Source of the DNA: Alphaproteobacteria bacterium
Lineage (GTDB): Bacteria > Pseudomonadota > Alphaproteobacteria > SHVZ01
NCBI GenBank assembly: GCA_041906305.1
Contig: JAYRJL010000005.1
Coordinates: forward strand, 212,269-276,268
Direction: 5' to 3'
Length of the DNA stretch: 64,000 nt
Within the stretch, counting starts at the first letter, position 1; every line of letters begins with the position of its first letter. Both the position numbers and the translations under genes were made by a program. Shown here in pieces: positions 35,660-60,640 of the stretch. The notes beneath the pieces were generated by a model, which saw only the letters and a list, made by a program, of their open reading frames with translations, did not search any database and was not told where the DNA came from.

Positions 35660-35764
35660 ACCCCCTCCCCCTTGACGGGGGAGGGATGGGGTGGGGGTGG
35701 AGCAGCAAACTCGTTGCTGGCAGCACCCCCCACCCTAACCCTCCCCCGCAAGGGGGGAGGGGAC
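35660..35764. repeat. Composite GC-rich palindromic repeat (REP/MITE-like), copy 1.
   Basis: The sequence is CCCTCCCCC-ttgac-GGGGGAGGG atGGGGTGGGGGTGG ... CCCCCCACCCTAACCCTCCCCCgcaaGGGGGGAGGGG. It belongs to the same family as the copies at 38.1, 47.7, 50.4, 54.4-54.8 and 60.6 kb. Confidence 0.8.
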
Positions 35765-35789
35765 ATGAGACGCGAGCGGAGTCACTCTG

Positions 35790-37031
35790 ATGCTCGACGG
35801 GCCGGTCCCCGAAGGCGGACGCCTCGCGCAGAACCTGATGCGCTTCGGGCGCGTGCTGCGCGCGGCCGGGCTGCCGGTCGGGCCGGGCAAGGTGCTGGAC
35901 GCGATCCGCGCGGTCGAGACGGTCGGCATCTCGAGCCGCGCCGATTTCTACTGGGCGCTGCATGCGGTGTTCGTGAACCGGCGCGACCAGCGCGAGGTCT
36001 TCGACCAGGCCTTCCACGTCTTCTGGCGCAACCCGAAGATCATGGAACGCCTGATGGCCCTGGTGCTGCCGAGCTTCCGTGCCGAAGGGGTGGGCGACCA
36101 GATGGAGGTCTCGCGCCGCGTCGCCGAGGCGATGCAGGGAAACGCCGGCGCCTTCCCCGAGACCCAGACCGAGGAGAACAACGAGATCGAGGTCGATGCG
36201 ACGCTGACCTTCTCCGAGAAGGAGGTGCTGCGCGCGATGGACTTCGAGAAGATGTCGGCCGATGAAATCAGGAAGGCGGAGGCGGCGATCCGCCGTCTCG
36301 CCGCCCGGATCAAGATGGAGCCGACGCGGCGCTTCCGTCCCAATCCATCCGGCAGCCGCATAGATCTCCGTCAGACCATGCGCTCGGCGCTGCGCGGCAA
36401 TCCGGACGTGATCGACCTCAAGCGCCGTCGCCGCGTGATGAAGCCGCCGCCGCTGGTGGCGCTCTGCGACATCTCCGGCTCGATGAGCCGCTACAGCCGG
36501 CTCTTCCTGCATTTCCTGCACGCCGTCACCAACGACCGCGACCGGGTGCACAGCTTCGTCTTCGGGACCCGGCTCACCAACGTCACGCGCGATCTCCGCC
36601 AGAAGGACATCGACGTGGCGCTCGCCCGCGTCGCCCAGCATGTCGAGGACTGGTCGGGCGGCACGCGCATCGGCGCCACGCTGCACGAGTTCAACACGCG
36701 CTGGTCGCGCCGCGTGCTGGGGCAGGGCGCGGTCGTGCTGTTCATCTCCGATGGTCTCGATCGCGATGCCGGCGCCGGCATCGAGCGCGAGATCGAGCGG
36801 CTCCACAAATCCGCGCGGCGGCTGATCTGGCTCAATCCGCTGTTGCGCTACGAGGGCTTCGCCCCCAAATCCATGGGGGTCCGGGCGCTCTTGCCCCATG
36901 TGGACGAGTTCCGTCCGGTGCATAATCTCGAAAGCCTGGAGGCGCTGGCGACGGCGCTGGCCCAGCCCGCCCCGAGGCGGCTCGAAGCCGCCGCCGCCTG
37001 GTCGGGCAGACTCGAAGGAGAAGCCGCATGA
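35790..37031 (+). CDS. coxE: VWA-domain protein, CoxE-like.
   Basis: The VWA MIDAS context (LVALCDISGSMSRYS) is present. It follows the MoxR ATPase, as in cox accessory clusters. Confidence 0.8.
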   Translation: MLDGPVPEGGRLAQNLMRFGRVLRAAGLPVGPGKVLDAIRAVETVGISSRADFYWALHAVFVNRRDQREVFDQAFHVFWRNPKIMERLMALVLPSFRAEGVGDQMEVSRRVAEAMQGNAGAFPETQTEENNEIEVDATLTFSEKEVLRAMDFEKMSADEIRKAEAAIRRLAARIKMEPTRRFRPNPSGSRIDLRQTMRSALRGNPDVIDLKRRRRVMKPPPLVALCDISGSMSRYSRLFLHFLHAVTNDRDRVHSFVFGTRLTNVTRDLRQKDIDVALARVAQHVEDWSGGTRIGATLHEFNTRWSRRVLGQGAVVLFISDGLDRDAGAGIEREIERLHKSARRLIWLNPLLRYEGFAPKSMGVRALLPHVDEFRPVHNLESLEALATALAQPAPRRLEAAAAWSGRLEGEAA

Positions 37032-37369
37032 GCCAAGCCCTCCCGTTCGATTCCGGCGCCGCCGACGTGCTGGCGACGGCGGCGTCGTGGAAGGCCCAGG
37101 GGAAGAAGGTGGCGCTCGCCACCGTGGTCACCACCTGGGGCTCCTCGCCGCGTCCGCAGGGCAGCCAGCTCGCGATCGACGAATCCGGGGCCTTCGTCGG
37201 CTCCGTCTCCGGCGGCTGCATCGAGGGCGCGGTGGTCAAGGAAGGCCTGGCGGCGATGAAGGACGGCAAGCCGCGCCTCCTCGACTTCGGCGTGACCGAC
37301 GAGCAGGCCTGGGATGTCGGCCTCGCCTGCGGCGGCAAGGTGCAGGTCTTCGTCGAGCCCGTCGGATAA
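37028..37369 (+). CDS. XdhC/CoxI-family N-terminal domain protein. The two XdhC domains are encoded separately.
   Basis: The sequence ...WGSSPRPQGSQLAIDESGAFVGSVSGGCIEGAV matches XdhC_CoxI. Confidence 0.7.
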   Translation: MSQALPFDSGAADVLATAASWKAQGKKVALATVVTTWGSSPRPQGSQLAIDESGAFVGSVSGGCIEGAVVKEGLAAMKDGKPRLLDFGVTDEQAWDVGLACGGKVQVFVEPVG

Positions 37370-37379
37370 GGGTGGGCGG

Positions 37380-38078
37380 ATGAAGCTCGACATCCTCGAG
37401 AAGCTGCAGAAGGCGCGTGCCGGGCGCGTGCCCGTCGCGCTGGTGACCGACCTCGACTCCGGTGCGCAGGCGCTGCTCGAAGCCGGCGAGATGATTGGCG
37501 ACGTTGCCCTTGCCGACGACGCGCTGGCCGCCGCGGTTAAGCTGATCGAGCGCGATTCGAGCGGCCAGATCGAGGTCGAGGGCCGGCGCATCTTCGTCCA
37601 TGTCCACAACCCGCCGGCACGGCTGATCGTCGTCGGCGCGGTGCACATCGCCCAGGCGCTGGTGCCGATGGCGGCGCTCGCAGGCTATGCGGTCACCGTC
37701 GTCGATCCGCGCCGCGCGTTCGCGACCGACGCGCGCTTCCCGACGGTGACGCTCTCCGACGACTGGCCCGACGAAGCGATGGAGAAGCTGTCTCCCGATG
37801 CGCGCACGGCGGTCGTCACGCTGACCCACGATCCCAAGCTCGACGATCCGGCGCTGACCGTGGCGCTACGCTCGCCGGCCTTCTATGTCGGCTGCCTCGG
37901 CTCCAAGCGCACGCACGCGAAGCGGATCGACCGGCTGAAGGCGCAGGGCCTGACCGACGCCGAGATCGGCCGCATCCACGGCCCTGTCGGGCTTCCGATC
38001 CACGCGATCTCGCCGGCCGAGATCGCGATCTCGATCCTGGCCGAGATTACGCAGGTTCGTCGAAAGGACGCGAAGTGA
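37380..38078 (+). CDS. XdhC Rossmann-like C-terminal domain protein.
   Basis: The sequence ...LIVVGAVHIAQALVPMAALAGYAVTVVDPR...YVGCLGSKRTHAKR matches XdhC_C. Confidence 0.7.
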   Translation: MKLDILEKLQKARAGRVPVALVTDLDSGAQALLEAGEMIGDVALADDALAAAVKLIERDSSGQIEVEGRRIFVHVHNPPARLIVVGAVHIAQALVPMAALAGYAVTVVDPRRAFATDARFPTVTLSDDWPDEAMEKLSPDARTAVVTLTHDPKLDDPALTVALRSPAFYVGCLGSKRTHAKRIDRLKAQGLTDAEIGRIHGPVGLPIHAISPAEIAISILAEITQVRRKDAK

Positions 38079-38095
38079 CGACCTCGCTACGCTCG

Positions 38096-38222
38096 GCCCC
38101 CACCCCGTCCCTCCCCCGGCAGAGCCGGGGGAGGGTGCTCGATGTCGTCTTTCGTGCCCCCTCCCTCGGCTGCGTAGCAGACGGGGGAGGGACGGGGTGG
38201 GGGCAGCGCTGCGTAGCAGCGC
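38096..38222. repeat. Composite GC-rich palindromic repeat, copy 2.
   Basis: The sequence is CCCCCACCCCGTCCCTCCCCC-loop-GGGGGAGGG ... CCCCCTCCC-loop-GGGGGAGGGACGGGGTGGGGG. A direct repeat GCTGCGTAGCAG is also present. Confidence 0.8.
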
Positions 38223-38232
38223 GGGGCTGTCG

Positions 38233-39878
<1,646 letters not shown>

Positions 39879-39882
<4 letters not shown>

Positions 39883-41075
39883 GGCTGCGCGAGCAGTTTC
39901 CGCTGCTGGCATCCGACCCCGGGATCCACTACCTGGATTCCGGCGCGTCGTCGCAGGTGCCGCAGGCGGTGCTCGACGCGGTGCATACATTCGAGACCAC
40001 CCAGCGCGCCAATGTCCATCGGGGCGTGCATCGCCTGGCGGAGGCCGCGACCGCAGCCTATGAGGGTGCGCGCGACGAGATCGCGGGGTTCTTCTCGGCG
40101 AAGCGCGAGGAGATCGTCTTCACCTCGGGCACGACGGGCGCGATCAACCTGGTCGCGCATAGCTTCGGCGATGCGCTCAGGCCCGGCGACGAGATCGTCA
40201 TCAGCGAGATCGAGCACCACTCCAACGTCGTCCCCTGGCAGATGCTACGCGACCGGCGCGGCCTCGTGCTGAAGGCGCTGCCGGTGACCGTCGAGGGCCG
40301 CATCGACCTCTCCGCGCTCGACCGCCTGGTGACGGCGAAGACGAAGCTGATCGCGCTCGCCCATTGCTCCAACGTTACCGGTGCCGTCGCCGAGCTCGCC
40401 AGGGTGGTCGACGCGGCGAAGGCGGTGGGCGCCGCGGTGCTGATCGACGGCGCCCAGCGCGTGCCGCACGGACCGCTCGACATCCCGGCGCTCGGCGTCG
40501 ATTTCTACGCCTTCTCCGGCCACAAGATGTACGCGCCGCACGGCATCGGCGTGCTGTGGGGAAAGCGCCAGCGCCTGGAGGCGATGCCGCCCTTCCTCGG
40601 CGGCGGCGACATGATCCGCCACGTGACGATCGAGAAGACCACCTATGCTCCGCCGCCGATGCGCTTCGAGGCGGGCACGCCCAACATCTCCGGCGCGATC
40701 GGCCTCGGCGCCGCCTGCCGCTGGATGCGCGGCCTCGACTGGACCGCGATCGCTCAAGCGGAGATGCGGCTCACCGGCCGCGTGCTCGACGGCCTCGCCA
40801 AGGTTCCGGGCGCGCGCATCGTCGGTCCTCTCGGATTGCAGCAGCGGATCGGCGTCGTCTCCTTCGCGCTCGGCGCCGCACACCCGCACGACGTGGCGCA
40901 GATCCTCGACCGGCACGGCGTCGCCTGCCGCGGCGGGCATCACTGCGCGGAACCGCTGATGGACCGCTTCGACCTGATGGGAACGACCCGCGCCTCGATC
41001 GCGCCCTACACCGAGGACGCGGACATCGACGCGCTGCTCCGCGGCGTCGACGAGGCGCGGAGGCTGCTCGGATGA
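39879..41075 (+). CDS. sufS: Class-V aminotransferase cysteine desulfurase (SufS/CsdA-like). The GTG start overlaps the upstream stop.
   Basis: The PLP-lysine context is FSGHKMYAPHGIGVLWG. The active-site loop is HHCA, and the motif RASIAPYT is present. Confidence 0.8.
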
Positions 41076-41479: not shown

Positions 41480-41566
41480 CGAGTTATCCCGCCTACGATG
41501 CGTAGTTTACAAAAGATTATTTAAAATTTGTCGTGAACTTGGGCATGATCTTCCGGGGTGGAAATC

Positions 41567-42609: not shown

Positions 42610-42613
42610 GCGG

Positions 42614-43378
42614 TCACCGCATCAGGAACCCGCCGTCGACGGCCAGGATGTGGCCGTTGACGTAGCTGGCAAGATCGCTGGCGAGGAACACCGCGCCGCG
42701 CGCGCACTCGGACGCCAGGCCCATGCGGCCGAGCGGGATGCGCGAGCGCGCGTTCTCCAGCGTCTCCTTGGTCATGCCCGTCCGCTGCATCGGCGTGTCG
42801 ATCGCGCCCGGCGACAGCGTGTTCACGGTGATGCCGTGGGGACCCAGGTCCTTCGCGAAGGACTTGGTCATCGTCATGATGCCGGCCTTGGTGATCGCAT
42901 AGGCGGTGGCGCCGACGAAGCCGCCGACGAGACCGGCGCCGCTCGAGCAGTTGACGATGCGGCCCCATTTGCGCGGCTTCATCACTTCGCCTGCGGCGCG
43001 GCAGAGGAAGAACTGGCTGCGCAGGTTGACGTTCATGAGCTTGTCCCACTCGGCCTCGTCGACCTGCTCCATGTCGATGCGGCGGAGCGTGGCGGCGATG
43101 TTGAGGAGACAGTCGAGGCGGCCTTCGCGCTTCGCCGTGCGGGCGATCAGCGCGTCGCAGGCGGCGATGTCGGCGAGGTCGACGACCTCGGCCGTGTGGC
43201 CCGATCCGGCAAAGCCGGCGACGGTCGCCTTCACGCCGTCGGCGTTGACGTCGACCGCGATCACCTTGGCGCCGGCGGCGGCCATGATCTGGGCCGCGGC
43301 CTGGCCGATGCCGGACGCGGCACCGGTGACGATGGCGACGCGGCCCTGGAGGCCGAGGAGTTCGAGTTCGGGGCTCAT
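42614..43378 (-). CDS. SDR-family oxidoreductase (FabG-like).
   Basis: The TGAASGIG motif, the catalytic YxxxK context and the C-terminal HILAVDGGF motif are all present. Confidence 0.85.
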   Translation of the reverse strand: MSPELELLGLQGRVAIVTGAASGIGQAAAQIMAAAGAKVIAVDVNADGVKATVAGFAGSGHTAEVVDLADIAACDALIARTAKREGRLDCLLNIAATLRRIDMEQVDEAEWDKLMNVNLRSQFFLCRAAGEVMKPRKWGRIVNCSSGAGLVGGFVGATAYAITKAGIMTMTKSFAKDLGPHGITVNTLSPGAIDTPMQRTGMTKETLENARSRIPLGRMGLASECARGAVFLASDLASYVNGHILAVDGGFLMR

Positions 43379-44163
43379 CGCAGCATCAGCCCCCCTTCGA
43401 CGTCGAGCGTATGCCCGGTGACATAGCTTCCCCAGTCGGAGACCAGGAACAGGATCGCCTTGGCGACTTCCTCGGGCTGGCCGGCGCGCTTGAGCGGCAC
43501 GTTCTTCTGATAGTGCGCGTTCCAGCTCTCGTCGGTGAAGCCGAAGCGGCCCATCGGCGTGTCGATGCCGCCGGGCGCCACCGCATTCACGGTGATGTTG
43601 TCGGCGGCGACCTGGCGGGCGAGCGACTTCGCCAGCGCCAGCGCGCCGCCCTTGCCGATCGCGTAGACCGAGGAGTTGTCGGCGCCGCCGTTGAAGGCGG
43701 CGGTCGAGGCGATGACCACGACGCGTCCGGACTTCTGCTTGCGCATGGGACGCACCGCGGCGCGGCACATCGCGAACTGGCTGAGCAGGTTGGTGTCCAT
43801 CATCTGCTCCCACAGGGCCGCATCCACGTCCTTGATCGCGACGCGGCGGAGGATCGCCGCCGCGTTGACCAGGATGTCGAGGCGGCCGTGGCGCTTGAGC
43901 ACGGCATCCACCACCTGCTCGCAGGCGGCCGGCACCGAGAGGTCGGCGGTGTCGGTCGAGCCGTCGCGGCCGAGGTCGAGCCCGGCGAAGCCCTTCGGGT
44001 TGATGTCGACCGCGGTGACCACGGCGCCGGCGCGTGCCAGGAGCTCGGCGGTGGCGCGGCCGATGCCGGATCCGGCACCGGTCACGATCGTGACCTTGCC
44101 GGCGAGGCCGAAGCCGGCGCCGGGCTCGCCGGAGACGGTGACGCCTTTCGTGAGCTCGCTCAT
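43375..44163 (-). CDS. SDR-family oxidoreductase (FabG-like).
   Basis: The TGAGSGIG motif and the motif YAIGKGG...HTLDVEGG are present. An ATGA overlap links it to both neighbours. Confidence 0.85.
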   Translation of the reverse strand: MSELTKGVTVSGEPGAGFGLAGKVTIVTGAGSGIGRATAELLARAGAVVTAVDINPKGFAGLDLGRDGSTDTADLSVPAACEQVVDAVLKRHGRLDILVNAAAILRRVAIKDVDAALWEQMMDTNLLSQFAMCRAAVRPMRKQKSGRVVVIASTAAFNGGADNSSVYAIGKGGALALAKSLARQVAADNITVNAVAPGGIDTPMGRFGFTDESWNAHYQKNVPLKRAGQPEEVAKAILFLVSDWGSYVTGHTLDVEGGLMLR

Positions 44164-46364
44164 GCGTTCTCCGGCATCTGGAACGGGGTGGGATCGATGA
44201 AGCGCTTCAGCACGTTCCGGGTGATCCGTTCGATGTTGTTGTCGAAGTTGTTCCACGACAGCGAGCCCGACCAGGCGATCGAGCCGACGGAGAAGACCGC
44301 GCCGCCGCCCGCCGTCTCGAAGAAGACGATGTCGGCGCGGACGGGATCGAGGGTCTCCTCGTTCGGCTTCGGCACCAGGTCGGTGAAGCTCGGCACCGAG
44401 ATGTCATAGACGTTGGTGTGGTTCCAGGAGGACGCCAGCAGCAGCGCGTGCCGCGGAGATCCGAGACTCGTGTCGTGGCGGTCGATCTCGTAGCCCGCGG
44501 CACCGCCCATCAGCACGCCGAAGTCGCCGACGATCTCGTCCTTCACGCCCTCGAAGATGAAGGCGGCGCGCGGGTCGTGGCTCGCCTTCGAGCGCTTGTA
44601 GCCGGAACAGGCGTCGAACCCTTGCGTCACCATGCCGACGCCGCAGATCAGGTTGGGCGGGCGGCCGACGCGGAGCCACGTGCCGGCGACCTCGCCGGTG
44701 AAGCTCATGTTGCTCTCGCCCTCGACGTTGGAGGCCAGGAAGCCCTGGCCGGCGCGGCGCACCTCGACCACGCCGGGCAGCGTCGGATGGTAGGCCGTCC
44801 GCCAGTAGAAGCCGTTGCCGCCGAGATACATGAAGCGGCCGCCGTCGCGCAGGAAGGTCTCGACCGCATCCATCATCTCGGTCGTGTAGTACTCGGGATG
44901 CGAGCCGGTGAAGATGCAGGCGTAGTCCGAGATCGCGGAGACGCCTTCGGCGTGCAGGTCGTCGTCGGTGACGATCTCGTAGTCGATCTTCGCGTGCTCG
45001 AGCCAGGCGATGAAGAACATGTCCTGGCAGAACTTGTAGACGCGCCCCGTGGGCCGGTAGTTGGTCACCGGCCGCATCATCGAGGAGTAGAGCGTCAGGC
45101 TGCCGTCGGAGTGCGGATCGTAGGTCGAGGAGCCCAGATCCGGATACTCCTCCATCAGGAAGTCGGTGCGGTCGAGCACGGTGACGCGGCCATGATAGAG
45201 CTCGCTCCAGCGGCCCTCCACGCGCGACCGGAAGTTCGAATAGGCGGCGTAGGTGCAGGTGGGCACCAGGAAGGCGCAGCGTGCCTTGGCGCCGCCCTTC
45301 TTCGGACGCACGAAGAACGGCACGAAGAACTCGGCATCGCCGGCTTCGAGCCTCAGCGCATAGGTACCGCTCTTCCAGTTGTCCGGGATCGTCAGCTCGT
45401 AGGCGGTCGGCCAGAGGCAGTCGTAGATGTCGTCGTCATGGAAGTGGATCGAGCCGTACTGCTCGGGGATCGACTTCCAGTCGTGCCGCTCGGCCTTCCA
45501 GTTCGAGCCGAACACGGCCCTGGTCGGCAGGTTGACGGTGGTGCCCCAGAGCGCGTTCGGCGAGACGTCGCGCACGATCTCGGACGAGATGTCGCGCGAG
45601 AAGTCCCAGTCCGCGATCGCATCGACATGGGCGGGCCCGGTCGGACCGGCGAGCGCGAGGCGTTCGAGATCGGAAAAGGTGAGGGCGCGGCCGAGCACGC
45701 GCGGCCGCTCGATCTTGCCGTTGTAGTGGCGGATGACCTTCGGCCCGTCCGCTTGCGCGCCGATCCGGAACGGCCGTTCCGAGGGGGTGGGACGCGGCAC
45801 GCGGTCGAAGCGCTGCTGAAGCGAGCCCAGCGCGTCGAACTGGAACAGCTCGACCTCGCGCGCATAGACGAGCGCGGTGCCGGTCGCCGCGTCGATCGCG
45901 GCGGCGACGAAGCTCCAGCGCTTCGGGCGCAGCTTCCGCGGCAGCGCATAGTGCTGGCCGCCGACGACGAGGGCCAGCCGTCCTTCGTCGTCGATATGGA
46001 GGCCGATGCCGGCGGTCCCGTCGGCGTTGCCCAGGATCGCCTGCTCGCCCTTCGCCGGGGTCGTCGGCCAGACGAACGCGGCGAGTGTGCAGGTGGTGAG
46101 CCGCGTCAGCTTCGGGTGCGCCGGGATCTCGGCGTAGCTGCCGGCGGGGATCGGATGATGCTGGCCCTTGTGCTCGCCGTTGAACGGGCACGGCATCGCG
46201 TCGTACCGGAATTCCGGCGCGTGCGGCGCGGGAAACGTCTGCGCGCTTAAGAGGCGGACCACCGTCGCCTTGTAGTTGGGCGATCCGTCGACGCTGACCT
46301 TGAACTGGATCGGCTCGCCGACGCGCACGCTGCGGCGATCGGCATATCCCATGACCGAGACCAT
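44160..46364 (-). CDS. N,N-dimethylformamidase large (beta) subunit-family protein.
   Basis: It is 734 aa and contains the LYLGGNGFYWR-type motif shared with the paralog at 47800. The family assignment is from memory of DmfA2 homologs, so confidence is moderate. Confidence 0.5.
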   Translation of the reverse strand: MVSVMGYADRRSVRVGEPIQFKVSVDGSPNYKATVVRLLSAQTFPAPHAPEFRYDAMPCPFNGEHKGQHHPIPAGSYAEIPAHPKLTRLTTCTLAAFVWPTTPAKGEQAILGNADGTAGIGLHIDDEGRLALVVGGQHYALPRKLRPKRWSFVAAAIDAATGTALVYAREVELFQFDALGSLQQRFDRVPRPTPSERPFRIGAQADGPKVIRHYNGKIERPRVLGRALTFSDLERLALAGPTGPAHVDAIADWDFSRDISSEIVRDVSPNALWGTTVNLPTRAVFGSNWKAERHDWKSIPEQYGSIHFHDDDIYDCLWPTAYELTIPDNWKSGTYALRLEAGDAEFFVPFFVRPKKGGAKARCAFLVPTCTYAAYSNFRSRVEGRWSELYHGRVTVLDRTDFLMEEYPDLGSSTYDPHSDGSLTLYSSMMRPVTNYRPTGRVYKFCQDMFFIAWLEHAKIDYEIVTDDDLHAEGVSAISDYACIFTGSHPEYYTTEMMDAVETFLRDGGRFMYLGGNGFYWRTAYHPTLPGVVEVRRAGQGFLASNVEGESNMSFTGEVAGTWLRVGRPPNLICGVGMVTQGFDACSGYKRSKASHDPRAAFIFEGVKDEIVGDFGVLMGGAAGYEIDRHDTSLGSPRHALLLASSWNHTNVYDISVPSFTDLVPKPNEETLDPVRADIVFFETAGGGAVFSVGSIAWSGSLSWNNFDNNIERITRNVLKRFIDPTPFQMPENA

Positions 46365-47624: not shown

Positions 47625-47774
47625 CCCTCCCTCGCGTCGTACGCGGGGGAGGGCAGGGTGGGGGCACTGGCTCGATTGACCGGTTAGTCCAAGTGGTTGC
47701 CGGCGTTCCTGCGACGTCGACCTCGCGCAGGCCCCCATCCCGTCCTTCCTCCGCGTACGACGCGAGGGAAGGGG
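47625..47774. repeat. Composite GC-rich palindromic repeat, copy 3. It is more degenerate than the others.
   Basis: The sequence is CCCTCCCTCGCGTCGTACGCGGGGGAGGGCAGGGTGGGGGC ... GCCCCCATCCCGTCCTTCCTCCGCGTACGACGCGAGGGAAGGGG. Confidence 0.7.
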
Positions 47775-47799: not shown

Positions 47800-49380
47800 C
47801 TACTTCAGGAAGTTCTCGATCACGTTCCGGGTGATCTTCGACACCTTGTCGTCGATGAAGATCGAGGCGTTCCAGGCGATCGAGCCGGCGGAGAAGACCT
47901 TTCCGCCCGACGGCATCTCGTAATAGATCATGTCGGCGCCGCCATTGTCGGGGTTCTCGCCCTTGGCGAGCTGGACCGTGCCCTTAGGCGTCCACGGCGT
48001 GACCTTGTCGGTCTCGTGACCGGAAGCGCCGCCGGGGCAGCGCATGTGCAGGCTCTTCTCGCCGAACAGGTCGCCGTTCTTGAGGCCCGTGCTCGCATAG
48101 ATCCAGTGGCTCGCGTCCTTGACGCGATAGGGGGCGCCGGTCATCGCGCCATCGTAGTCGAAGACGACGCCGAGCAGGTTGGACGGGCACTCGACGCGGT
48201 CGCGGAAGCGCGGCGTGTACTTGCCGGGCTGGCGGAGCCGCCGCGCGTCGCCGTTGTGGCAGACGACGGCGTCGCCCTCGAACGTCACCTCGCAGTCGAT
48301 GCCGTTGCCGCCGAGATAGAGGAGCCGTCCGCCGCGCTCATGCACCCAGGCCTTCACCTTGAAGTACATCTCCTTCGACCAGTACTCGGGATGGGTCGAG
48401 AGGATCAGGATCTTGTAGGCATCCAGGTCGAGCGTGCCCTCGTGCAGCTGGCTCTCGGCCCAGAAGTCGTAGGCGAAGCCCTCGCGCTCGAGCCAGGCGA
48501 GGAAGCGCCACTCGGCCGGCGCGATATGGCAGGCCGAGCGGCCCTCGATGATGTTCTCGGGCTTCTCGTCCTCGGGCACGAAGTTGATCGGCTCCGGCCG
48601 GTCGAAGGACAGCGGCGCGTAGGTCTCGGACTGGTACGTCAGGAAGTTCGTCGCGGTGTAGCGCTGCAGGTCCTGGCGCGAGTTGACCGTCGGCGTCTCG
48701 GGAAGCTTGTCGGTGTTGATGTAGTTCGAGCGCCCGCCGAAGGCGTTGTAGACGTTCCAGGTGATGTTGGAGGCGAGCACCGCGATCTTCGCGGTCGGCT
48801 TCTTCGGCGCCACGATCCACGGGAACGAGAAGAACAGACCCGACTTGGTCGAGGCGTGGAAGTAGTAGAGCCCGCTCTTCTCCGGCGCCGTCGCGGTCGG
48901 CCGGAATCCCGGGCTCGCATAGCCCGTCTTGCTCCACTGCACGCCGGTCTGGGTGTAGTCGCCGTCGGGCGTGATCTGCACCATCGCACGCGGCCCGTGC
49001 TCGTCCCACCAGCCGAGCCCTTCGACGCGCTCCTTCTTCAGGCCGTAGCGCCAGAGCTCCATGTGGAAGGCTTCCGGCGAATGCACGCGGAACTCGGACT
49101 TCTCGCCCGACTGCACGTATTTCGGCCACGGGTACCCGAGGAGCTGGTCGGCGAGCAGACGGAAGTGATGCGGCACGCCGCGCTGCACGGTCATCGTCGT
49201 GCGCTTCGCTCCGAACCCGGCCTTCGACAGCACGACCTCGTACTCGCCGGGCGCGATGTCCGCGTAGACGGCGCCGGAGGCGCGGGACGTCACCGCCTCG
49301 GAGATGCCGTTCCGGATGAACTCGAGCGCGACGCCTTCGATTGCGACATAACGTTCGTCGCTGACATAGCCGACCAGCAT
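47800..49380 (-). CDS. N,N-dimethylformamidase large-subunit-family paralog that lacks the N-terminal domain.
   Basis: The start at MLVGYVSDERYV has a GGAG RBS. The LYLGGNGIDCEV motif is present. The track ORF 47800..50067 extends artifactually into the DMT gene on the opposite strand. Confidence 0.55.
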   Translation of the reverse strand: MLVGYVSDERYVAIEGVALEFIRNGISEAVTSRASGAVYADIAPGEYEVVLSKAGFGAKRTTMTVQRGVPHHFRLLADQLLGYPWPKYVQSGEKSEFRVHSPEAFHMELWRYGLKKERVEGLGWWDEHGPRAMVQITPDGDYTQTGVQWSKTGYASPGFRPTATAPEKSGLYYFHASTKSGLFFSFPWIVAPKKPTAKIAVLASNITWNVYNAFGGRSNYINTDKLPETPTVNSRQDLQRYTATNFLTYQSETYAPLSFDRPEPINFVPEDEKPENIIEGRSACHIAPAEWRFLAWLEREGFAYDFWAESQLHEGTLDLDAYKILILSTHPEYWSKEMYFKVKAWVHERGGRLLYLGGNGIDCEVTFEGDAVVCHNGDARRLRQPGKYTPRFRDRVECPSNLLGVVFDYDGAMTGAPYRVKDASHWIYASTGLKNGDLFGEKSLHMRCPGGASGHETDKVTPWTPKGTVQLAKGENPDNGGADMIYYEMPSGGKVFSAGSIAWNASIFIDDKVSKITRNVIENFLK

Positions 49381-50366: not shown

Positions 50367-50387
50367 CGGAACCCTCCCGCGAACGCG

Positions 50388-50545
50388 CCTCGAGTCCCCT
50401 CCCTCGCCGGAGGCGGGGGAGGGCTAGGGTGGGGGCAAGACTCGGTGGCGCGATCGGTCGAGACGGCAGCCGCCGCGACTCCGACGTGCCACCTCGCGCG
50501 GGCCCCCCACCCCGACCCTCCCCCGCGTATGACGCGAGGGAGGGG
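50388..50545. repeat. Composite GC-rich palindromic repeat, copy 4.
   Basis: The sequence is CCCCTCCCTCGCCGGAGGCGGGGGAGGGCTAGGGTGGGGGC ... GCCCCCCACCCCGACCCTCCCCCGCGTATGACGCGAGGGAGGGGG. Confidence 0.8.
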
Positions 50546-54348: not shown

Positions 54349-54378
54349 GGCCTCATTAGGGCGCGAGGCGCCTCGTAT

Positions 54379-54842
54379 CCCCTCACCCCGCGGAGCGTGG
54401 GGGAGGGTTAGGGTGGGGGGCGAGACTCGCTTGCACCACCCAACGCCGCAGCAATCTTCTCCATCACGCCATCGAGGTTCTCCAGAACCTCGTTGTTCCA
54501 GAAGCGCAGGACGCTGAAGCCTTCGCTTGCCAGCCACCGCGTCCGTTGCTCGTCATAGGCGGATTGTCCTGCGTGCTGGCCGCCATCGAGCTCGATCACG
54601 ACTTTCGGGTCGAAGCAGGCGAAGTCGGCGATGTAGCGCCCGATGACAGCCTGTCTGCGAAAACGTGCGCCGCGGATCTGTCCGTTGCGGAGGCGCTGCC
54701 AGAGCGTGCGCTCGGCGTCGGTCATGTTCCGGCGGAGAGAGCGGGCGTTCGGAGTGAGAGGCGAGGACTTGTCGGGCACCCCCCACCCTAACCCTCCCCC
54801 ACGCTCCGCGGGGGGAGGGGATAAGAGATGACGTTGTCTTAC
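54379..54842. mobile_element. Candidate small mobile element. A DUF559 endonuclease gene lies between about 43-bp terminal inverted repeats that belong to the same GC-rich repeat family.
   Basis: The left end is CCCCTCACCCCGCGGAGCGTGGGGGAGGGTTAGGGTGGGGGG. The right end, CCCCCCACCCTAACCCTCCCCCACGCTCCGCGGGGGGAGGGGA, is its reverse complement. The cargo is the DUF559 ORF. Confidence 0.5.
54408..54725 (-). CDS. DUF559 (Vsr-like endonuclease-fold) domain protein.
   Basis: The sequence MTDAERTLWQRLRNGQIRGARFRRQAVIGRYIADFACFDPKVVIELDGGQHAG...RTRWLASEGFSVLRFWNNEV matches DUF559. The track ORF extends 5' through the inverted repeat, so the true start was set at M151. Confidence 0.7.
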   Translation of the reverse strand: MTDAERTLWQRLRNGQIRGARFRRQAVIGRYIADFACFDPKVVIELDGGQHAGQSAYDEQRTRWLASEGFSVLRFWNNEVLENLDGVMEKIAAALGGASESRPPP

Positions 54843-54847
54843 GTCCC

Positions 54848-55336
54848 CTACTTCACCACTTCGTCCGGGTACGCGCCGAAGAACTCGGTGCGCTTGAGCC
54901 AGCCCTTGTAGCCGCCGATCTCGGCGCGGCACCAGGCTTCGCGGCATTCCATCAGGCGGCCGACCAGGCCGGGCTCGACCATGGCGATGGCGTCGGCGTC
55001 GTCCTTGCGGTCGCTCCGGAGCTTCCGGGTCTCGCCGGTGATCAGCAGCGTGCGGCGGCCGGTGAGGAAGCTCGACTGCACCCAGCCGACCGAGCCCTGG
55101 AAGTCGCGGATGCGCCGCCAGGTGTCGAATTCCTGGATCACCTCGACCGGCATCGCGCGCTTGGTCAGCACCCACTCGATCGGATAGCGGGTGCCGGGGC
55201 CGGTCCTGAGGTTGATCTCGCCCGAGCGCAGCGAAACGAAGCGCGGCACCGGCAGGCCGCTCTCGTTGGCGGCGTCCGCAGGGAAAGAACCCGTGGCGAG
55301 GAGGAGGATCAGGAGGACGGCGAGACGACGCAGCAT
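54848..55336 (-). CDS. Secreted bacterial SH3-domain protein.
   Basis: It has a signal peptide (MLRRLAVLLILLLATGSFPADA). The SH3b-like motifs are PRFVSLRSGEINLRTGPGTRYPIEWVL and WCRAEIGGYKGWL. Confidence 0.7.
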   Translation of the reverse strand: MLRRLAVLLILLLATGSFPADAANESGLPVPRFVSLRSGEINLRTGPGTRYPIEWVLTKRAMPVEVIQEFDTWRRIRDFQGSVGWVQSSFLTGRRTLLITGETRKLRSDRKDDADAIAMVEPGLVGRLMECREAWCRAEIGGYKGWLKRTEFFGAYPDEVVK

Positions 55337-55489
55337 GCCGGTCCGGAACGAGCCTTGAGGAATGACCCTGTTTAGGTGCGGAGTGCCTTCCGGGTCAAGG
55401 ATTTGCGCCCCGTCCGTCGGGGATTTGCGGCTGGAAACCGGGTTATGCCGGGCTATAGTCGAGCGGTGACACCTAAACGCGGGGAATGA

Positions 55490-56230
55490 GTGGGCGTCTG
55501 GGAGGATCTGGCGCGGGAACTCGACGCCTGGGGGATGGCCGAGCGGCGGGCGACGCTGTGGTGGCGCGACGACGACGCCGTGGCGCCGACCCAGGCGCTG
55601 GCGCGCCTGAACGACCTCGGCCGGGCCCACGACGTGGTCCCGGCGCTGGCGGTGGTGCCGAAGTCCGCCGAAGCGTCCTTGCCGGGGGCGGTCCTCCTCC
55701 AGCACGGCTACGCGCATACCAACCACGGCATCGCCAAGAAGGCCGAGCTCGGTTCCGACCGGCCGGCGGCGGCGGTCGCCGACGAGCTGAAGGCCGGCCG
55801 CAGGCGGCTCCTCGATCTCTTCGCCGAGCGCGTGCTGCCGGTGCTGGCGCCGCCCTGGAACCGCATCGCGCCCGACGTCGTGGTGCTGCTGCCGGGTCTC
55901 GGATTTCGCGGGCTCTCGACCTACCAGCCGCGCGCGCAGGCGGAAGCCGCGCCGGGGTTGACGCAGGTCAACACGCATGCCGACATCATCGACTGGCGCG
56001 AGCGGCGCTTCATCGGCGACGAATTCGCCTGCGGCGCGGTCATCCGCCACCTGATCGATCGCCGACTCGGCCGCGTCGATCCGGTCGAGCCGACCGGAAT
56101 CCTGACGCATCATCTCGTCCACGACGCGCCGGCCTGGCGCTTCCTCGAGCGCCTGCTGAAGCTCACGCGCGCTCATCCCGCCATCCGCTGGCTGACGCCG
56201 GCCCAAGCTTTCGGACTTACGCCCGCATGA
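55490..56230 (+). CDS. Hypothetical protein, possibly polysaccharide-deacetylase-like.
   Basis: A 246-aa ORF with coding bias. The family is uncertain. Confidence 0.45.
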   Translation: MGVWEDLARELDAWGMAERRATLWWRDDDAVAPTQALARLNDLGRAHDVVPALAVVPKSAEASLPGAVLLQHGYAHTNHGIAKKAELGSDRPAAAVADELKAGRRRLLDLFAERVLPVLAPPWNRIAPDVVVLLPGLGFRGLSTYQPRAQAEAAPGLTQVNTHADIIDWRERRFIGDEFACGAVIRHLIDRRLGRVDPVEPTGILTHHLVHDAPAWRFLERLLKLTRAHPAIRWLTPAQAFGLTPA

Positions 56231-56715
56231 CCGTGCATACCTATCCGACCAAGGCAATGATGGGAGACTATCTCCGCGCCGCTTTCGGCCTGGCCCTCAC
56301 CGGCACGCCGATCCTGCTGTCGCCGCCGGGATCGGCGGCGATGTACATCCTTGGACCGCTCGCCCTGCTGTTCGCGATCTTCGGCGCGCGCACCTGGCTG
56401 CGCCACCGCACCACGGTCGAGGTCGACGACCTCAAGGTCGCCATGCGCGGGCTGTGGAGAAGCGAGCTCGCTTGGTCCGACCTGCAGGAAGTGAAGCTCA
56501 ACTACTATTCGACCAAGCGCGACCGCAGCCAGGGCTGGATGCAGCTCGCGCTGCGCGGGCCGAAGGGGCGGCTGCGCTTCGACTCGACGCTCGACGGCTT
56601 CCCGGAGGTCGCGCGCCGCGCCTACCAGACCGCGCGCGCCAAGGGCCTGGAACTCCCAGAGGCCTCGATCTCGAACTTCGCCGCGCTCGGCTTCGAGCCG
56701 CCGAAGTCGCACTGA
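56227..56715 (+). CDS. Hypothetical membrane protein of 162 aa.
   Basis: An ATGA overlap links it to the upstream gene. It has two TM helices and no recognised family. Confidence 0.45.
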   Translation: MTVHTYPTKAMMGDYLRAAFGLALTGTPILLSPPGSAAMYILGPLALLFAIFGARTWLRHRTTVEVDDLKVAMRGLWRSELAWSDLQEVKLNYYSTKRDRSQGWMQLALRGPKGRLRFDSTLDGFPEVARRAYQTARAKGLELPEASISNFAALGFEPPKSH

Positions 56716-56723
56716 CCCTTCCC

Positions 56724-58616
56724 ATGAGCACGAGCCCGCTTCTCCGCGTCAGCGACCTCAAGATCGTCTTCGACCTGCCGGAGGGTCAGCTCGTCGCGGT
56801 CGACGGCGTCAACTTCCGCGTCCGCTACGGCCAGACCACCGCGCTGGTCGGCGAGTCCGGCTCGGGCAAGACCGTCGTCTCGCAGGCGATCCTCAACATC
56901 CTGCCGAAGTCGGCGCGCGTCGCCTCGGGCCAGATCCTGTTCGCCGATCCGGCCAAGGCAGGCACCGTCAACGACATCGCCCACATGCCGCCGGAGAGCC
57001 GCGGCATGCGCGCGATCCGTGGCGGGCGGATCTCGATCATCTTTCAGGAGCCGATGACCTCGCTCTCGGCGCTCCATACGATCGGCGACCAGATCGCCGA
57101 GACGATGGAGCTGCACAAGCCGGTGAGCCGCGCCCAGGCGCTGGAGGCGACCCGCGACATGCTTCGCCTCGTCGGCTTCCCGGATCCGAAGAAGGCGGTC
57201 GACACCTATCCGTTCGAGCTTTCGGGCGGGCTTCGCCAGCGCGCGATGATCGCGATGGCGCTGATCTGCCGGCCGGCGCTGCTGATCGCCGACGAGCCGA
57301 CGACCGCGCTCGACGTCACCATCCAGGCGCAGATCCTGAAGCTGATCGCCGATCTCCAGCAGGAGCTCGGCATGGCGGTGCTGGTCATCACCCACGACCT
57401 CGGCGTCGTCGCCAACGTCGCCCAGGAGGTCGTGGTGATGTACCGCGGCCGGGTCATGGAGGCGGGCACCGTCGAGGACATCTTCCGCGCGCCCGAGCAT
57501 CCCTACCTCAAGGCGCTCATGCGCGCGGTGCCGCGCTTCGGCATGAAGCCGGGCGAGCGCCTGATCCCGCTCCGCGAGATCAAGAGCGAGCAGATGCGCC
57601 TGATGGAGGCGAAGGCCGAGTGGCCCGAGGGCGCGGACGCCGCCGGTCCGCTGCTCAAGGTCGAGGGCGTCGGCAAGCGCTTCCGCATCCGCAAGACCGC
57701 GTGGTTCGGCGACAAGCAGGCCGGCGAGGTGATCGCGGTCGACGACGTCTCCTTCGAGGTGAAGCGCGGCGAATGCCTCGGCCTCGTCGGCGAGTCGGGC
57801 TGCGGCAAGACCACGCTGTCGAAGATCCTGCTGCGCGCGCTCAGGCCCGATGCCGGCTCCGTCGTCTTCAACGACCGCGGCACGCCGGTCGACATGCTGG
57901 CGCTCGAGGGCAACGACCTCGTCAAGTTCCGCACCAAGATGCAGTACGTGTTCCAGGATCCGTTCGGATCCCTGAACCCGCGCATGACCGTCTTCGACAT
58001 CATCGCCGAGCCGCTGGTGATCCATGGGATCGGCCGCGAGGAGGAGCGCCAGGAGCGCGTCAAGGAGCTGATGCGACTGGTCGGCCTCGATGTGCGTCAT
58101 CTCAGGCGCTACCCGCACAGCTTCTCCGGCGGCCAGCGCCAGCGCATCTGCATCGCGCGCGCGCTCGCGCTCCGTCCCGACCTGCTCATCTGCGACGAGC
58201 CGGTGTCCGCGCTCGACGTCTCGATCCAGGCGCAGATCCTCAACCTGCTGAAGGACCTGCAGCAGCAGCTCGGGCTCACTTACCTTTTCATCAGCCACAA
58301 CCTCGCGGTCGTCGACTACGTCGCGCACCGCATCGCGGTGATGTGCGCCGGCCGCCTGGTCGAGATCGCGCCGCGCGAGGTGCTGTTCCGGAACCCGATC
58401 CATCCCTACACGCGGGCGCTGCTTTCGGCGGTGCCCGAGCCCGACCTCGAGCGGAAGCTCGACTTCGCGCATGTCCTCGACAGCAAGGCCTCGGTGCCGT
58501 CCGCCTGGCCGGAGCCGTTCAAGATCGACGGCGAGCTTCGCCCGCGCCTGATCGACGTCGGCGGGGGCCACTACGTCCGCGCCAGCTCGGTGCCGGATCT
58601 CAAGGAGGTCGCGTGA
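56724..58616 (+). CDS. yejF: Fused double-ATPase ABC transporter protein, YejF/DppDF-like (peptide or microcin C transport).
   Basis: There are two Walker A motifs (GESGSGKT and GESGCGKT) and two signature motifs (LSGGLRQR and FSGGQRQR). Confidence 0.9.
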
Positions 58617-60520
58617 TGCGCCTGCTGATCGCCGCACTCCTCGCGCTCGCGACCGTCGATGCGTCCGCGCAGACGACCTATCGCGACCCGCCGAGCCTGC
58701 TCGACGCGGTGCACGCAGGCCAGCTTCCGCCGATCGCCCAGCGCCTGCCCGAGCGGCCCGACGTCGCCAAGCTCTATTCCTTCCAGACGATCGGCCGCCA
58801 CGGCGGCTCGCTCCGGATGATCTCGGGCGGCGCCGGCGACACGCGCTTCGCCGTCGTCTACGGCTATGCCCGGCTCGCCGGGCACGACATGAACTTCAAG
58901 CTGCAGGCCGACATCGCCGAGAAGGTCGAGGTCGAGGGCGACCGGCGCTTCACCTTCCATCTGCGCCCGGGCCACCGCTGGTCGGACGGCCAGCCGTTCA
59001 CCACCGAGGACTTCCGCTACACCTGGGAGGACGTGTTCGGCAACGCGCGGCTGCGTCCGTCGGGCGTGCCGATCGAGATGCTGGTGCACGGCGAGCGGCC
59101 GCTGTTCGAGGTCCTGTCGCCGACCGTCGTCCGATACACGTGGTCGCACCCGAACCCGACATTCCTCGCCTCGCTCGCCGGCCCGCGCCCGCTCGAGATC
59201 TTCGCGCCGGCGCACTACCTCAAGCAGTTCCACGAGAAGTACGCGAAGCCGGAAGACCTCGAGAAGAAGGTCCGCGACGAGCGCGTGCGCAACTGGGCGG
59301 TGCTGCACAATCGCCGCGACAACCAGTACCGTCTCGACAATCCGGATATGCCGACGCTGCAGCCCTGGATGCTGGTGACCGCGCCGCCGGCCGACCGTTT
59401 CGTCTTCAAGCGCAATCCCTTCTATCACCGCGTCGACAGCGAGGGGCGCCAGCTCCCCTACCTCGACGAGCTGGTCATGTCGGTCGCCGACGGCAAGATC
59501 GTGCCGCTGAAGACCGGCGCCGGCGAGGCCGACCTGCAGGCGCGCTACCTCCGCTTCGACAACTACACCTTCCTCAAGGAGGCCGAGCAGCGGAGCGGAT
59601 TCAAGGTCAGGCTGTGGCGCACCGTGCGCGGCGCCGACCAGGCGCTGGTGCCGAACCTCAACGTCAACGATCCGGTGTGGCGCGGCGTGCTGCGCGACGT
59701 CCGCTTCCGCCGCGCGCTCTCGCTCGCCACCAACCGGCACGAGATCAACCAGGTGATCTATTACGGGCTCGGCATCGAGGGGAACAACACGGTGCTGCCG
59801 GGATCGCCGCTCTACAACGACGATCTCCGCACGCGCTGGGCCCGCTACGACATCAGGGCGGCGAACGCCCTGCTCGACGAGATGGGGCTCACCAAGCGCG
59901 ACCACCACGGCATCCGCCTGCTGCCCGACGGCCGGCCGATGAAGATCGTGGTCGAGACCGCCGGCGAGTCGACCGAGCAGATGGACATCCTCGAGCTGGT
60001 GCACGACACCTGGCTCGACCTCGGCATCAAGATCTATCCCAAGGCGCTGCAGCGAGACGTGCTGCGCAACCGCGTCTTCGCCGGCGAGACGGTGATGTGC
60101 ATCTGGTTCGGCGCGGAGTTCGCGCTGGCGGACGCCGACTCCAACCCGCGCGACTTCGTCGTCTCCGAGCAGCAGCAGCTGCAATGGCCGAAATGGGGCC
60201 AGTACCGCGAGACCAAGGGCAAGTCGGGCGAGCCGGCGGATCTGCCGGAGGCGAAGGAGCTGCAGACGCTCGACCACGCCTGGGGCGAGACGGCCGATCC
60301 CGACGTCCGGCGCGGCATCTGGCGGCGGATCCTGGAGATCAACGCCGACCAGCAGTTCACCATCGGCATCGTCGCCGGCGCCATGCAGCCGGTGGTGATC
60401 GGAGCCGCGCTCAAGAACCTGCCGGAGCAGGGCATCTTCAACTGGGAGCCCGGCGCGCAGTTCGGCATGTACCGGCCGGACACCTTCTACTTCGGCAATG
60501 CCGACGTGGCGCAGCGATGA
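58616..60520 (+). CDS. yejA: ABC transporter substrate-binding protein of family 5, YejA-like.
   Basis: It has a signal peptide ([18 protein letters not shown]), is about 634 aa and has the SBP_bac_5 architecture. Its ATG overlaps the yejF stop. Confidence 0.85.
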   Translation: MRLLIAALLALATVDASAQTTYRDPPSLLDAVHAGQLPPIAQRLPERPDVAKLYSFQTIGRHGGSLRMISGGAGDTRFAVVYGYARLAGHDMNFKLQADIAEKVEVEGDRRFTFHLRPGHRWSDGQPFTTEDFRYTWEDVFGNARLRPSGVPIEMLVHGERPLFEVLSPTVVRYTWSHPNPTFLASLAGPRPLEIFAPAHYLKQFHEKYAKPEDLEKKVRDERVRNWAVLHNRRDNQYRLDNPDMPTLQPWMLVTAPPADRFVFKRNPFYHRVDSEGRQLPYLDELVMSVADGKIVPLKTGAGEADLQARYLRFDNYTFLKEAEQRSGFKVRLWRTVRGADQALVPNLNVNDPVWRGVLRDVRFRRALSLATNRHEINQVIYYGLGIEGNNTVLPGSPLYNDDLRTRWARYDIRAANALLDEMGLTKRDHHGIRLLPDGRPMKIVVETAGESTEQMDILELVHDTWLDLGIKIYPKALQRDVLRNRVFAGETVMCIWFGAEFALADADSNPRDFVVSEQQQLQWPKWGQYRETKGKSGEPADLPEAKELQTLDHAWGETADPDVRRGIWRRILEINADQQFTIGIVAGAMQPVVIGAALKNLPEQGIFNWEPGAQFGMYRPDTFYFGNADVAQR

Positions 60521-60539
60521 AAGTCGAGCCCTTGCACCT

Positions 60540-60640
60540 TCCCCCCACCCTGACCCTCCCCCACAAAGGGGGGAGGGGACACGAGGCGTCCTTTCATGCC
60601 CCCTCCTCCTCGATGGGGGAGGGTTGGGGTGGGGGTGGAG
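60540..60640. repeat. Composite GC-rich palindromic repeat, copy 6.
   Basis: The sequence is CCCCCCACCCTGACCCTCCCCCacaaaGGGGGGAGGGG ... CCCCCTCCTCCTCGATGGGGGAGGGTTGGGGTGGGGGTGG. Confidence 0.8.

Follow-up and report, generated by a model that had tools for sequence, protein, structure and literature searches.

Three names have been given to one bacterial repeat: BoxC (Bachellier, 1990s), PIT, for potential intrastrand triplex (Hoyne et al., 2000), and TMECO (Holder, 2015; PMC4666352), the last with the consensus CCCTCNCCC N3-6 GGGNGAGGG N3 GGGNGAGGG. That the E. coli sequence forms a triplex is indicated by circular dichroism (CD) and nuclear magnetic resonance evidence (Holder, 2015; PMC4666352), a triplex having been described also by Hoyne et al. 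(2000). TMECO copies, 3610 of them in 262 proteobacterial genomes, are intergenic, often form inverted and heterotypic pairs (all five E. coli K-12 pairs combine a type A with a type B), and occupy unstable loci that vary between strains; transposases and integrases were "never found" near them, and their function was given as not known (Holder, 2015; PMC4666352). An E. coli motif called HPGQ, which by CD switches between hairpin and G-quadruplex (G4) (Kaplan, 2016; PMC5100583), would appear to be the BoxC/PIT/TMECO repeat interpreted as a G4. Here we analyse 64,000 nucleotides of DNA (henceforth the window; positions 212,269 to 276,268, forward strand, of contig JAYRJL010000005.1, assembly GCA_041906305.1) from an uncultured alphaproteobacterium of the lineage SHVZ01, in which six sites very probably carry intrastrand-triplex repeats of the BoxC/TMECO type and one of the six repeat pairs encloses a gene for a nuclease of the DUF559 (PF04480) family, which has the Vsr fold. 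The association of such genes with the repeat modules recurs across bacteria, and we hold it to be real with high confidence; that the two make up a composite system, in which triplex repeats are paired with a DUF559 nuclease much as some other repeats are with a transposase, is the interpretation that we favour with moderate confidence.

With BoxC/PIT/TMECO the window repeats share the three-block design (a 9-nt C-rich arm and a loop, a 9-nt purine arm, and, after a linker of about 3 nt, a 9-nt mirrored G-run), an intergenic position in either orientation, frequent inverted and heterotypic pairing, loci that vary between close strains, and arms that are more conserved than loops. They differ in the arms themselves (GGGGGAGGG/GGGTGGGGG in the window versus GGGAGAGGG/GGGTGAGGG in E. 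coli), in loops of up to 15 nt, in a host that, unlike those published, is an uncultured alphaproteobacterium, and in the DUF559 gene inside a pair, whereas the published repeats have no associated gene. The strict TMECO pattern is departed from in the third run, where GGGTGGGGG has G rather than A at position 6, and in the spacing, 6 of 11 loops being longer than 6 nt and one linker having 2 nt, and the window copies are therefore a variant of the known repeat class. Like HPGQ (Kaplan, 2016; PMC5100583), whose copies tend to pair on opposite strands, they have four G-tracts after a conserved C-rich flank; unlike HPGQ, they belong to a family in which it is the mirror rule, and not G4 potential (17 of 57 sequence classes), that is conserved. 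The mirror-symmetric purine tract and the purine-motif triads recall H-DNA and homopurine-homopyrimidine mirror repeats, from which the window module differs in having its pyrimidine partner on the same strand, so that one strand can form the whole triplex, and in being a dispersed repeat rather than a simple tract. As in the REPIN-RAYT systems, in which doublets of repetitive extragenic palindromes (REPs) are partnered by a REP-associated tyrosine transposase (RAYT) (Bertels and Rainey, 2011; Nunvar, 2010; Ton-Hoang, 2012), inverted doublets fold as one long hairpin, and a single-copy, vertically inherited nuclease gene flanked by repeats is found alongside many gene-less intergenic copies. 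Unlike in those systems, the partner is a Vsr-fold PD-(D/E)XK nuclease and not an HUH/Y1 transposase, the GTAG/CGTC end tag (a REP feature; Di Nocera, 2013) is absent, a third strand and a predicted triplex are present, and the module sequence is cross-phylum.

Read in the orientation that we denote U (hairpin, then G-run; U' is its reverse complement), a window module has first an outer extension of some 7-9 nt, often CGCCTCGTA. Next comes a hairpin whose pyrimidine arm CCCTCCCCC and purine arm GGGGGAGGG are separated by a loop of 5-15 nt; beyond a linker of 2-3 nt stands the third run, GGGTGGGGG, which mirrors the purine arm. A first-pass annotation of this DNA had proposed a six-copy, GC-rich palindromic repeat family laid out as inverted pairs. 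Both the family and its layout are borne out by 12 modules forming 6 inverted pairs with gaps of 23-360 nt, all within 35663-60635, and base composition does not account for them: a generic finder that uses no fixed sequence, and looks for a pyrimidine/purine hairpin plus a mirrored third run with at most 1 mismatch each, recovers 11 modules from the window as against a mean of 0.01 and a maximum of 1 from 100 dinucleotide shuffles. CCCTCCCCC occurs 16 times in the window versus 1.07 expected from shuffles, and GGGTGGGGG 11 times versus 0.65. If up to 3 mismatches are allowed, the composite GGGGGAGGG-N3-GGGTGGGGG is found 13 times, at the 12 modules, where 0.16 matches are expected; the 3-mismatch search adds just a degenerate copy at 47732-47752 and finds no match in the window before 35677. 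In the 11 modules, 8-9 of 9 hairpin positions form Watson-Crick pairs and all 9 of 9 triads are of the permitted kinds (G.G:C, A.A:T and T.A:T, antiparallel to the purine arm); the window modules also contain a canonical G4 motif (G3 N1 G3 N3 G3 N1 G3).

The third runs face inward (U..U') at sites 1, 3, 4 and 5, where the match between the arms includes the loop, the loops being identical at site 3, and outward in the back-to-back pairs (U'..U) of sites 2 and 6, whose loops differ within the pair. Terminal inverted repeats are thus present, as in miniature inverted-repeat transposable elements (MITEs), with arms of 45-49 nt that are 80-96% complementary; unlike MITEs, the repeats show no target-site duplication at site 6. 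Whole pairs fold as single long hairpins (-34 to -59 kcal/mol, z-scores -4.1 to -7.9); for single modules the z-scores stay between -0.8 and -2.3, since stable folds are common among shuffled G/C blocks as well. Five pairs are purely intergenic and the sixth encloses the DUF559 gene only; the genes that neighbour the six sites are functionally unrelated, and at 4 of the 6 they are co-directional. Two further structural features were considered and dropped, a closing stem CCTCG..CGAGG around each module, which is seen in some modules only, and Watson-Crick pairing of the pyrimidine arm with the third run, which has mismatches in every hand-checked class. A scan of the whole window against Rfam at gathering thresholds gave no match.

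The module reaches far beyond this lineage. A search of 185,579 species genomes for GGGGGAGGG-N2-3-GGGTGGGGG yielded, among the matches listed, at least 120 loci, in Alpha-, Beta-, Gamma- and Deltaproteobacteria, Bacteroidota, Dehalococcoidia, Anaerolineae, Planctomycetota, Nitrospirae and one genome of the candidate phyla radiation; the C-arm lies just upstream of the G-run in 101 of the 144 genome matches listed, some with clearly AT-rich flanks. Since the same module occurs in many phyla, it is not a lineage-specific REP. At loci picked by DUF559 homology (see below), whose G+C content where modules are present ranges from 40 to 71%, changes in the purine arm are matched in the third run in the way that triplex triads demand, each purine-arm A being matched by A or T (the base opposite it is T in 99 cases, A in 126, G in 9 and C in 1), and perfect mirrors make up 83 of 112 unique modules as against 13.6 +/- 3.1 for shuffled partners with the register re-optimised. 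This mirror rule held in 57 sequence classes, including GGGAGAGGG/GGGTGAGGG and GGGGGAAGG/GGATGGGGG, whereas four G3 tracts occur in 96 of 190 modules and 17 of the 57 classes; the G4 was accordingly rejected as a conserved feature, half of the family being without four G-tracts. A heptamer-based quadruplex-forming repeat of Xanthomonas and Nostoc (Rehm, 2015) was set aside as well, as it concerns simple repeats.

The linker has regularities of its own. Three triplets, TTA, TCA and CTA, each the reverse complement of a stop codon, account for about 40% of the linkers in the modules of loci L123-L202, and the first linker base is nearly always a pyrimidine; in some lineages (L130, L144, L195) the linker has grown into a small hairpin, as in gggagagg-tcgcgccgaaggcgcg-ggtgaggg. 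A role as stop codon of the adjoining DUF559 gene does not explain the stop-type linkers and was rejected, because they are equally common downstream of the gene (21 of 60), upstream of it (23 of 53) and away from it (35 of 77). At least 120 IMG/VR contigs likewise carry modules, which flank 4 of 9 close DUF559 genes of viral contigs; in both cases the contigs may include host DNA. One viral-labelled contig (L220, IMG/VR; positions 66-1887) has a DUF559 gene amid three module pairs whose class, GGGAGAAGG/GGATGAGGG, is seen nowhere else and obeys the mirror rule.

The gene enclosed by the site 5 pair encodes a protein whose PF04480 match spans profile positions 4-108 of 109 and whose best solved relative is PDB 3HRL (E = 1.6e-41); the homing endonuclease I-Bth0305I (3R3P) is matched weakly, through its catalytic domain (E = 0.004). 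The protein keeps the residues of all 19 columns that do not vary in an alignment of 30 sequences, and would seem to be an active nuclease. The Pfam match begins upstream of the ATG chosen by the gene caller, and an in-frame GTG at 54779-54777, which abuts the third run of the upstream module, gives a protein beginning MPDKSSPLTPNARSLRRNMTDAE... that aligns with relatives beginning MPGLTP... and MPDLTP...; this GTG is the likely start. The only Shine-Dalgarno-like sequence upstream of it is the purine arm GGGGGAGGG of the module, so that with this start the sole candidate ribosome-binding sequence would lie inside a hairpin. At the other end the stop codon is the TAA linker of the second module, the protein closing with ...S R P P P. 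Elsewhere in the window there is no other DUF559 copy or recognisable fragment, and the protein has no match in the PADLOC library of defence systems.

The arrangement is not confined to the window. Among 80 metagenome loci chosen only by DUF559 homology (49-62% identity), 78 of which were assessable, a U module lies within 160 nt upstream of the gene at 50 and a U' module at its 3' end at 59, both counts being lower bounds because the finder misses linkers expanded into hairpins. Module density is 4.1 per kb within 200 nt of DUF559 versus 0.18 per kb elsewhere. The distance from the end of U to the MTDAE motif has a median of about 65 nt (range 39-159), U' most often begins within about 20 nt of the last matched codon, and module-encoded tails (...PPP, ...PHPNPPPQGGRE, ...PPSQPSPLQGEG, ...TLTLPHKGGG) close most of the 120 best homologues of the window protein. 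The gene stands between modules in both layouts, mostly U..gene..U' and, in L028 and L152, U'..gene..U, and heterotypic flanks occur at 14 of 67 DUF559 genes of the metagenome loci. Related DUF559 genes tend to have modules of one class: this is so for 42 of 67 nearest neighbours, versus 23 +/- 4.5 with shuffled labels, a match that would equally arise from shared ancestry. Approached from the side of the modules, DUF559 is the most recurrent family beside them, abutting a module in 4 of 120 module-selected genome loci among the matches listed, where no other family exceeds 3 loci. Within the literature searched, which takes in few subscription papers, nothing was found that links DUF559, ycjD or COG2852 with BoxC, TMECO or PIT; there the connection appears to be unreported, and it may have been described earlier elsewhere.

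E. coli, where the DUF559 gene is ycjD, offers a second view of the association. The ycjD gene of strain FDAARGOS_943 ends in CCCTCACCC-CAA-CCCTCTCCC-loop-GGCGAGGGGG, a canonical module, and K-12 ycjD is without 12 nt (C-run plus linker) that the FDAARGOS_943 allele keeps; in K-12 a BoxC lies 167 nt from the gene. Downstream of ycjD (L204, 7250-7440, the K-12 ycjD-fabI spacer; L219, 740-990) there are a degenerate second copy of the last ~60 nt of ycjD, a decayed module, and then an intact BoxC. Copies of TMECO number 13-30 (nearly all 18-30), 0-2 or 6-13 per strain, depending on the strain group (Holder, 2015; PMC4666352). The ycjD gene is single-copy and present in 3378 of 5426 complete E. 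coli genomes. We take the strains with 13-30 copies to be those of phylogroups A, B1 and C, those with 0-2 to be B2, and those with 6-13 to be D, E and F. According to a separate study, A, B1 and C have ycjD, which is replaced by eefRABCD elsewhere. When a combined query of ycjD and a BoxC pair was followed in genomes sampled across the ranking, there were 5-18 matching places per genome in 44 with ycjD and 1-13 in 16 without it, and a further 910 genomes had no match to the query and are therefore necessarily without ycjD. Taken together, these figures are suggestive of ycjD presence tracking BoxC copy number. Coverage of the combined query at a single place reaches 80% or more in 179 genomes.

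Table 1. Modules, pairs and neighbours of the six repeat sites, with the DUF559 gene of site 5 and the inserted segment of site 6 (window positions).
Feature	Coordinates	Strand or layout	Details
Site 1 module U	35663..35697	+	CCCTCCCCC / TTGAC / GGGGGAGGG / ATG / GGGTGGGGG
Site 1 module U'	35727..35761	-	inverted partner; arms match over 46 nt at 80%
Site 1 pair	35663-35761	U..U'	gap 29 nt; neighbours CoxD-like AAA ATPase gene (ends 35638) and coxE (starts 35790)
Site 2 module U'	38097..38135	-	back-to-back pair
Site 2 module U	38159..38203	+	15-nt loop
Site 2 pair	38097-38203	U'..U	gap 23 nt; neighbours XdhC-like and MobA-like genes
Site 3 module U	47625..47664	+	2-nt linker (CA)
Site 3 module U'	47733..47772	-	degenerate; C-run CCCCCATCC, arm CCTTCC, i.e. 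GGGGGAAGG/GGATGGGGG class
Site 3 pair	47625-47772	U..U'	gap 68 nt; neighbours DMFA2_C gene stop and Flg_bbr_C gene start, both minus strand
Site 4 module U	50397..50435	+	
Site 4 module U'	50504..50544	-	
Site 4 pair	50397-50544	U..U'	gap 68 nt; neighbours divergent, EamA (minus) and helicase (plus)
Site 5 module at DUF559 3' end	54380..54419	+	on gene strand: C-run CCCCCCACCC, TAA stop codon, then hairpin
DUF559 (PF04480) Vsr-fold nuclease gene	54408..54779	-	PF04480 E = 5.7e-45
Site 5 module at DUF559 5' end	54780..54819	-	carries purine arm GGGGGAGGG
Site 5 pair	54380-54819	U..U'	gap 360 nt; 49-nt arms match at 96%; neighbours SprA-related and SH3 genes (convergent)
Site 6 module U'	60542..60577	-	back-to-back pair
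Site 6 module U	60601..60635	+	
Site 6 pair	60542-60635	U'..U	gap 23 nt; neighbours ABC-transporter substrate-binding-protein gene and permease gene
Site 6 segment	60521..60667	.	147 nt: two modules plus 20-nt and 32-nt arms

Comparison with a relative from a JGI metagenome, whose DUF559 protein is 81% identical and whose gene order is the same, bears on the age and constraint of the copies. The genes of the relative are about 80% identical to those of the window, and in both the DUF559 element, site 3 and site 4 have the same positions. At site 5 the 41-nt module cores are identical between the two, loops and one conserved imperfection included, and the 49-nt arms are 96-98% identical, as against 79% for the gene region and 80-90% for the neighbouring genes. 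Site 3 is heterotypic, since its modules fall in different sequence classes; within either module the mirror rule of its class holds, and the relative (L203) has this heterotypic pair too. This site lies inside a cluster in which two paralogous N,N-dimethylformamidase beta-like (DMFA2_C) genes (47800-49380 and 44160-46364) flank a DMF_alpha-like gene and the Flg_bbr_C gene; the Pfam labels at 47800-49380 come from the window and the remaining ones from the syntenic relative.

Turnover is visible at site 6, the only site with an empty allele. Seven loci (L205-L211) with an identical permease, and flanks 98.2% and 99.3% identical, have between TGA and ATG only a 14-nt spacer, ggcaggcttaaacg; the site is filled in two, the window and contig L212 (147 nt), and is empty also in a more distant relative. 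Where it is filled the spacer has been replaced, not duplicated, and no target-site duplication was found. On inspection only, the insert looks like a U..U' element, of the kind seen at site 1, that has been circularly permuted: its outer extensions abut in mid-insert, and by eye its outward arms (tggagcCgca..., ...cttgcacctt) resemble the interior ends of site 1. For sites 1-5 no empty allele was obtained, the exact-protein look-ups having returned short contigs, apparently of the same population. Such short-read metagenome contigs tend to end at or within repeat pairs (L213, starting 55 nt upstream of coxE; L121, 771 nt; L214-L217), and the repeats thus fragment assemblies. By eye, there is an 8-10 nt resemblance to the DUF559 element beside the third run; the short pairs, which otherwise show no significant similarity to this element, are not demonstrably its deletion derivatives.

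Several remarks of the first-pass annotation can be placed against these results. It had described all copies as intergenic, which the pair at 54.4-54.8 kb contradicts, since it encloses the DUF559 gene and overlaps both its start and its stop; the same annotation had suggested looking for DUF559, and the gene is there. Of its parallel suggestion, a RAYT partner, there is no sign, DUF559 being the only gene in the window that repeats bracket. That some copies supply a Shine-Dalgarno sequence to the genes behind them applies to the DUF559 gene only: 27-33 nt separate the starts at 35790, 38233 and 60668 from the end of the purine arm or third run, and the ATG at 54829 opens no open reading frame (ORF) of 30 aa or more. 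The label REP/MITE-like is apt for the form, interspersed palindromes in inverted doublets as in REPs and REPINs, and not for a genome-specific REP or MITE family. Copies are indeed absent from the first 35 kb, but little can be concluded from this: by a rough gene map there are 17 intergenic gaps before 35 kb and 13 after, and the probability that 6 of 6 sites fall in one part is therefore about 0.01 before correction for a boundary chosen after the data were seen, and regional clustering of TMECO is also seen in E. coli K-12 (Holder, 2015; PMC4666352).

How repeats and nuclease might work together can be sketched as follows. On the G-rich strand the pyrimidine and purine arms would pair as a hairpin, and the third G-run would fold back antiparallel to the purine arm to form G.G:C, A.A:T and T.A:T triads, while inverted pairs could also fold as one hairpin of 90-150 nt. 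DUF559 would be to these repeats what RAYT is to REPINs, a cognate nuclease encoded in single copy. It may recognise or cut the structured module, triplex or hairpin, and repair of the break could copy a module pair from another site, which would explain why the repeats replace a short spacer without target duplication. Its own translation may be held down, the ribosome-binding region and the GTG lying in or against a hairpin. That DUF559 is the enzyme which maintains or spreads the repeats strikes us as an evenly balanced proposition.

A number of observations weigh against such a role. Adjacency would also result if the gene inserted into the repeats or were regulated by them instead of spreading them; only about 3% of randomly sampled modules touch a DUF559 gene, and neither tblastn nor blastn-short detects a significant trace of the DUF559 element in any short pair. 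Most copies are old, not recently mobile, since they are syntenic in the ~80% relative. In E. coli, phylogeny confounds the correlation, because A, B1 and C make up a single clade, and the ycjD-negative lineages in D, E and F still carry 6-13 copies. A nuclease of ~120 aa cannot rejoin DNA, so any spread must rely on host repair, and PIT elements had no in vivo effect on replication, promoter, terminator or conjugation function in the experiments of Maher's group as summarised in the literature.

Some of these points would suit a different explanation, in which DUF559 is a homing-type parasite of repeats that were there before it and that serve it as landing site and homology arms without being multiplied by it. 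Its distant catalytic relative I-Bth0305I (EDxHD family; Taylor et al., 2011; PMC3239194; PDB 3R3P) is a selfish nuclease that spreads via host repair of its own break, and a parasite would fit a gene placed exactly between two modules in both arrangements, modules that far outnumber DUF559 genes, and the copies kept by E. coli lineages without ycjD. We nevertheless consider it unlikely. Unlike I-Bth0305I, DUF559 is free-standing, with no intron or intein, no extra DNA-binding domain and a stable locus; ycjD is single-copy at a fixed locus in 3378 E. coli genomes, the synteny of the window gene in the relative is not that of an active homing gene, and the rise of module number with ycjD presence is not predicted by pure parasitism. 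Less probable again is a host-selected structural or regulatory element (a G4/hairpin switch, an mRNA 3' stabiliser or a pause site) that DUF559 uses as leader and terminator, to which the canonical G4 motif of the window modules, the hairpin/G4 switching of the E. coli motif by CD (Kaplan, 2016; PMC5100583), the co-directional genes at 4 of 6 sites and the module cores more conserved than neighbouring genes all lend some colour. It does not sit well with the mirror rule holding throughout a family of which only half has the four G3 tracts, with neighbours that form no functional class here or in E. coli, with the lack of promoter or terminator activity in the work of Maher's group, or with a copy that is dispensable between near-identical strains, and a 23-fold enrichment around one small gene family in many taxa would be unexpected.

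We give very little credence to a classical REP/REPIN family moved by a RAYT encoded elsewhere in the genome, even though short GC-rich hairpins in inverted doublets, intergenic and in many copies, are what such a family looks like, and even though, of the source genome, it is the window that was covered. What the repeats flank is DUF559 and not a Y1 transposase, it alone recurs at more than 3 of the 120 loci among the matches listed, the outer ends (..CCTCGTAYC, ..TCTCATGTC, ..ATCGAGCA and similar) have no GTAG or CGTC tag, the module is common to many phyla whereas REPs are specific to a lineage and its RAYT, and the third run with its mirror co-variation has no counterpart in REPs. Chance, finally, would have low-complexity G/C-rich sequence arise in a genome of ~69% G+C (66-72%), and by our own estimate an 18-base G-rich pattern is expected at a low rate in the high-GC part of the 596-Gb collection; the shuffles refute it, the C-arm upstream of so many listed matches, some with AT-rich flanks, and module-bearing DUF559 loci with as little as 40% G+C speak against it too, and we regard it as negligible.

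Two other sets of repeats in the window are of a different nature. Three tandem paralogous stretches of ~300 nt, 64-80% identical, lie at 24977-27150 in minus-strand ORFs of ~200 aa, and several direct repeats at 42763-44111, 70-73% identical with a constant spacing of 755-764 nt, point to two adjacent paralogous genes.

Triplex repeats paired with a DUF559 nuclease would join two unknowns, a very large protein family and an orphan repeat class, in a form that can be tested. The repeats have been known for some 30 years in E. coli, and the most thorough study of BoxC/PIT/TMECO found neither a mobility gene nor a function for them; E. coli K-12 carries both ycjD and BoxC, which makes simple experiments possible. 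There is also a practical side, as the repeats break metagenome assemblies and add spurious proline- and glycine-rich tails to called DUF559 ORFs. More tentatively, and at somewhat less than even expectation, we suggest that DUF559/YcjD may be the missing cognate nuclease of BoxC/PIT/TMECO and that the two together may form a second REPIN-like system, independent of RAYT and cross-phylum; if true, this would explain the origin of the BoxC repeat, open since the 1990s, and the "genomic instability" around these repeats.

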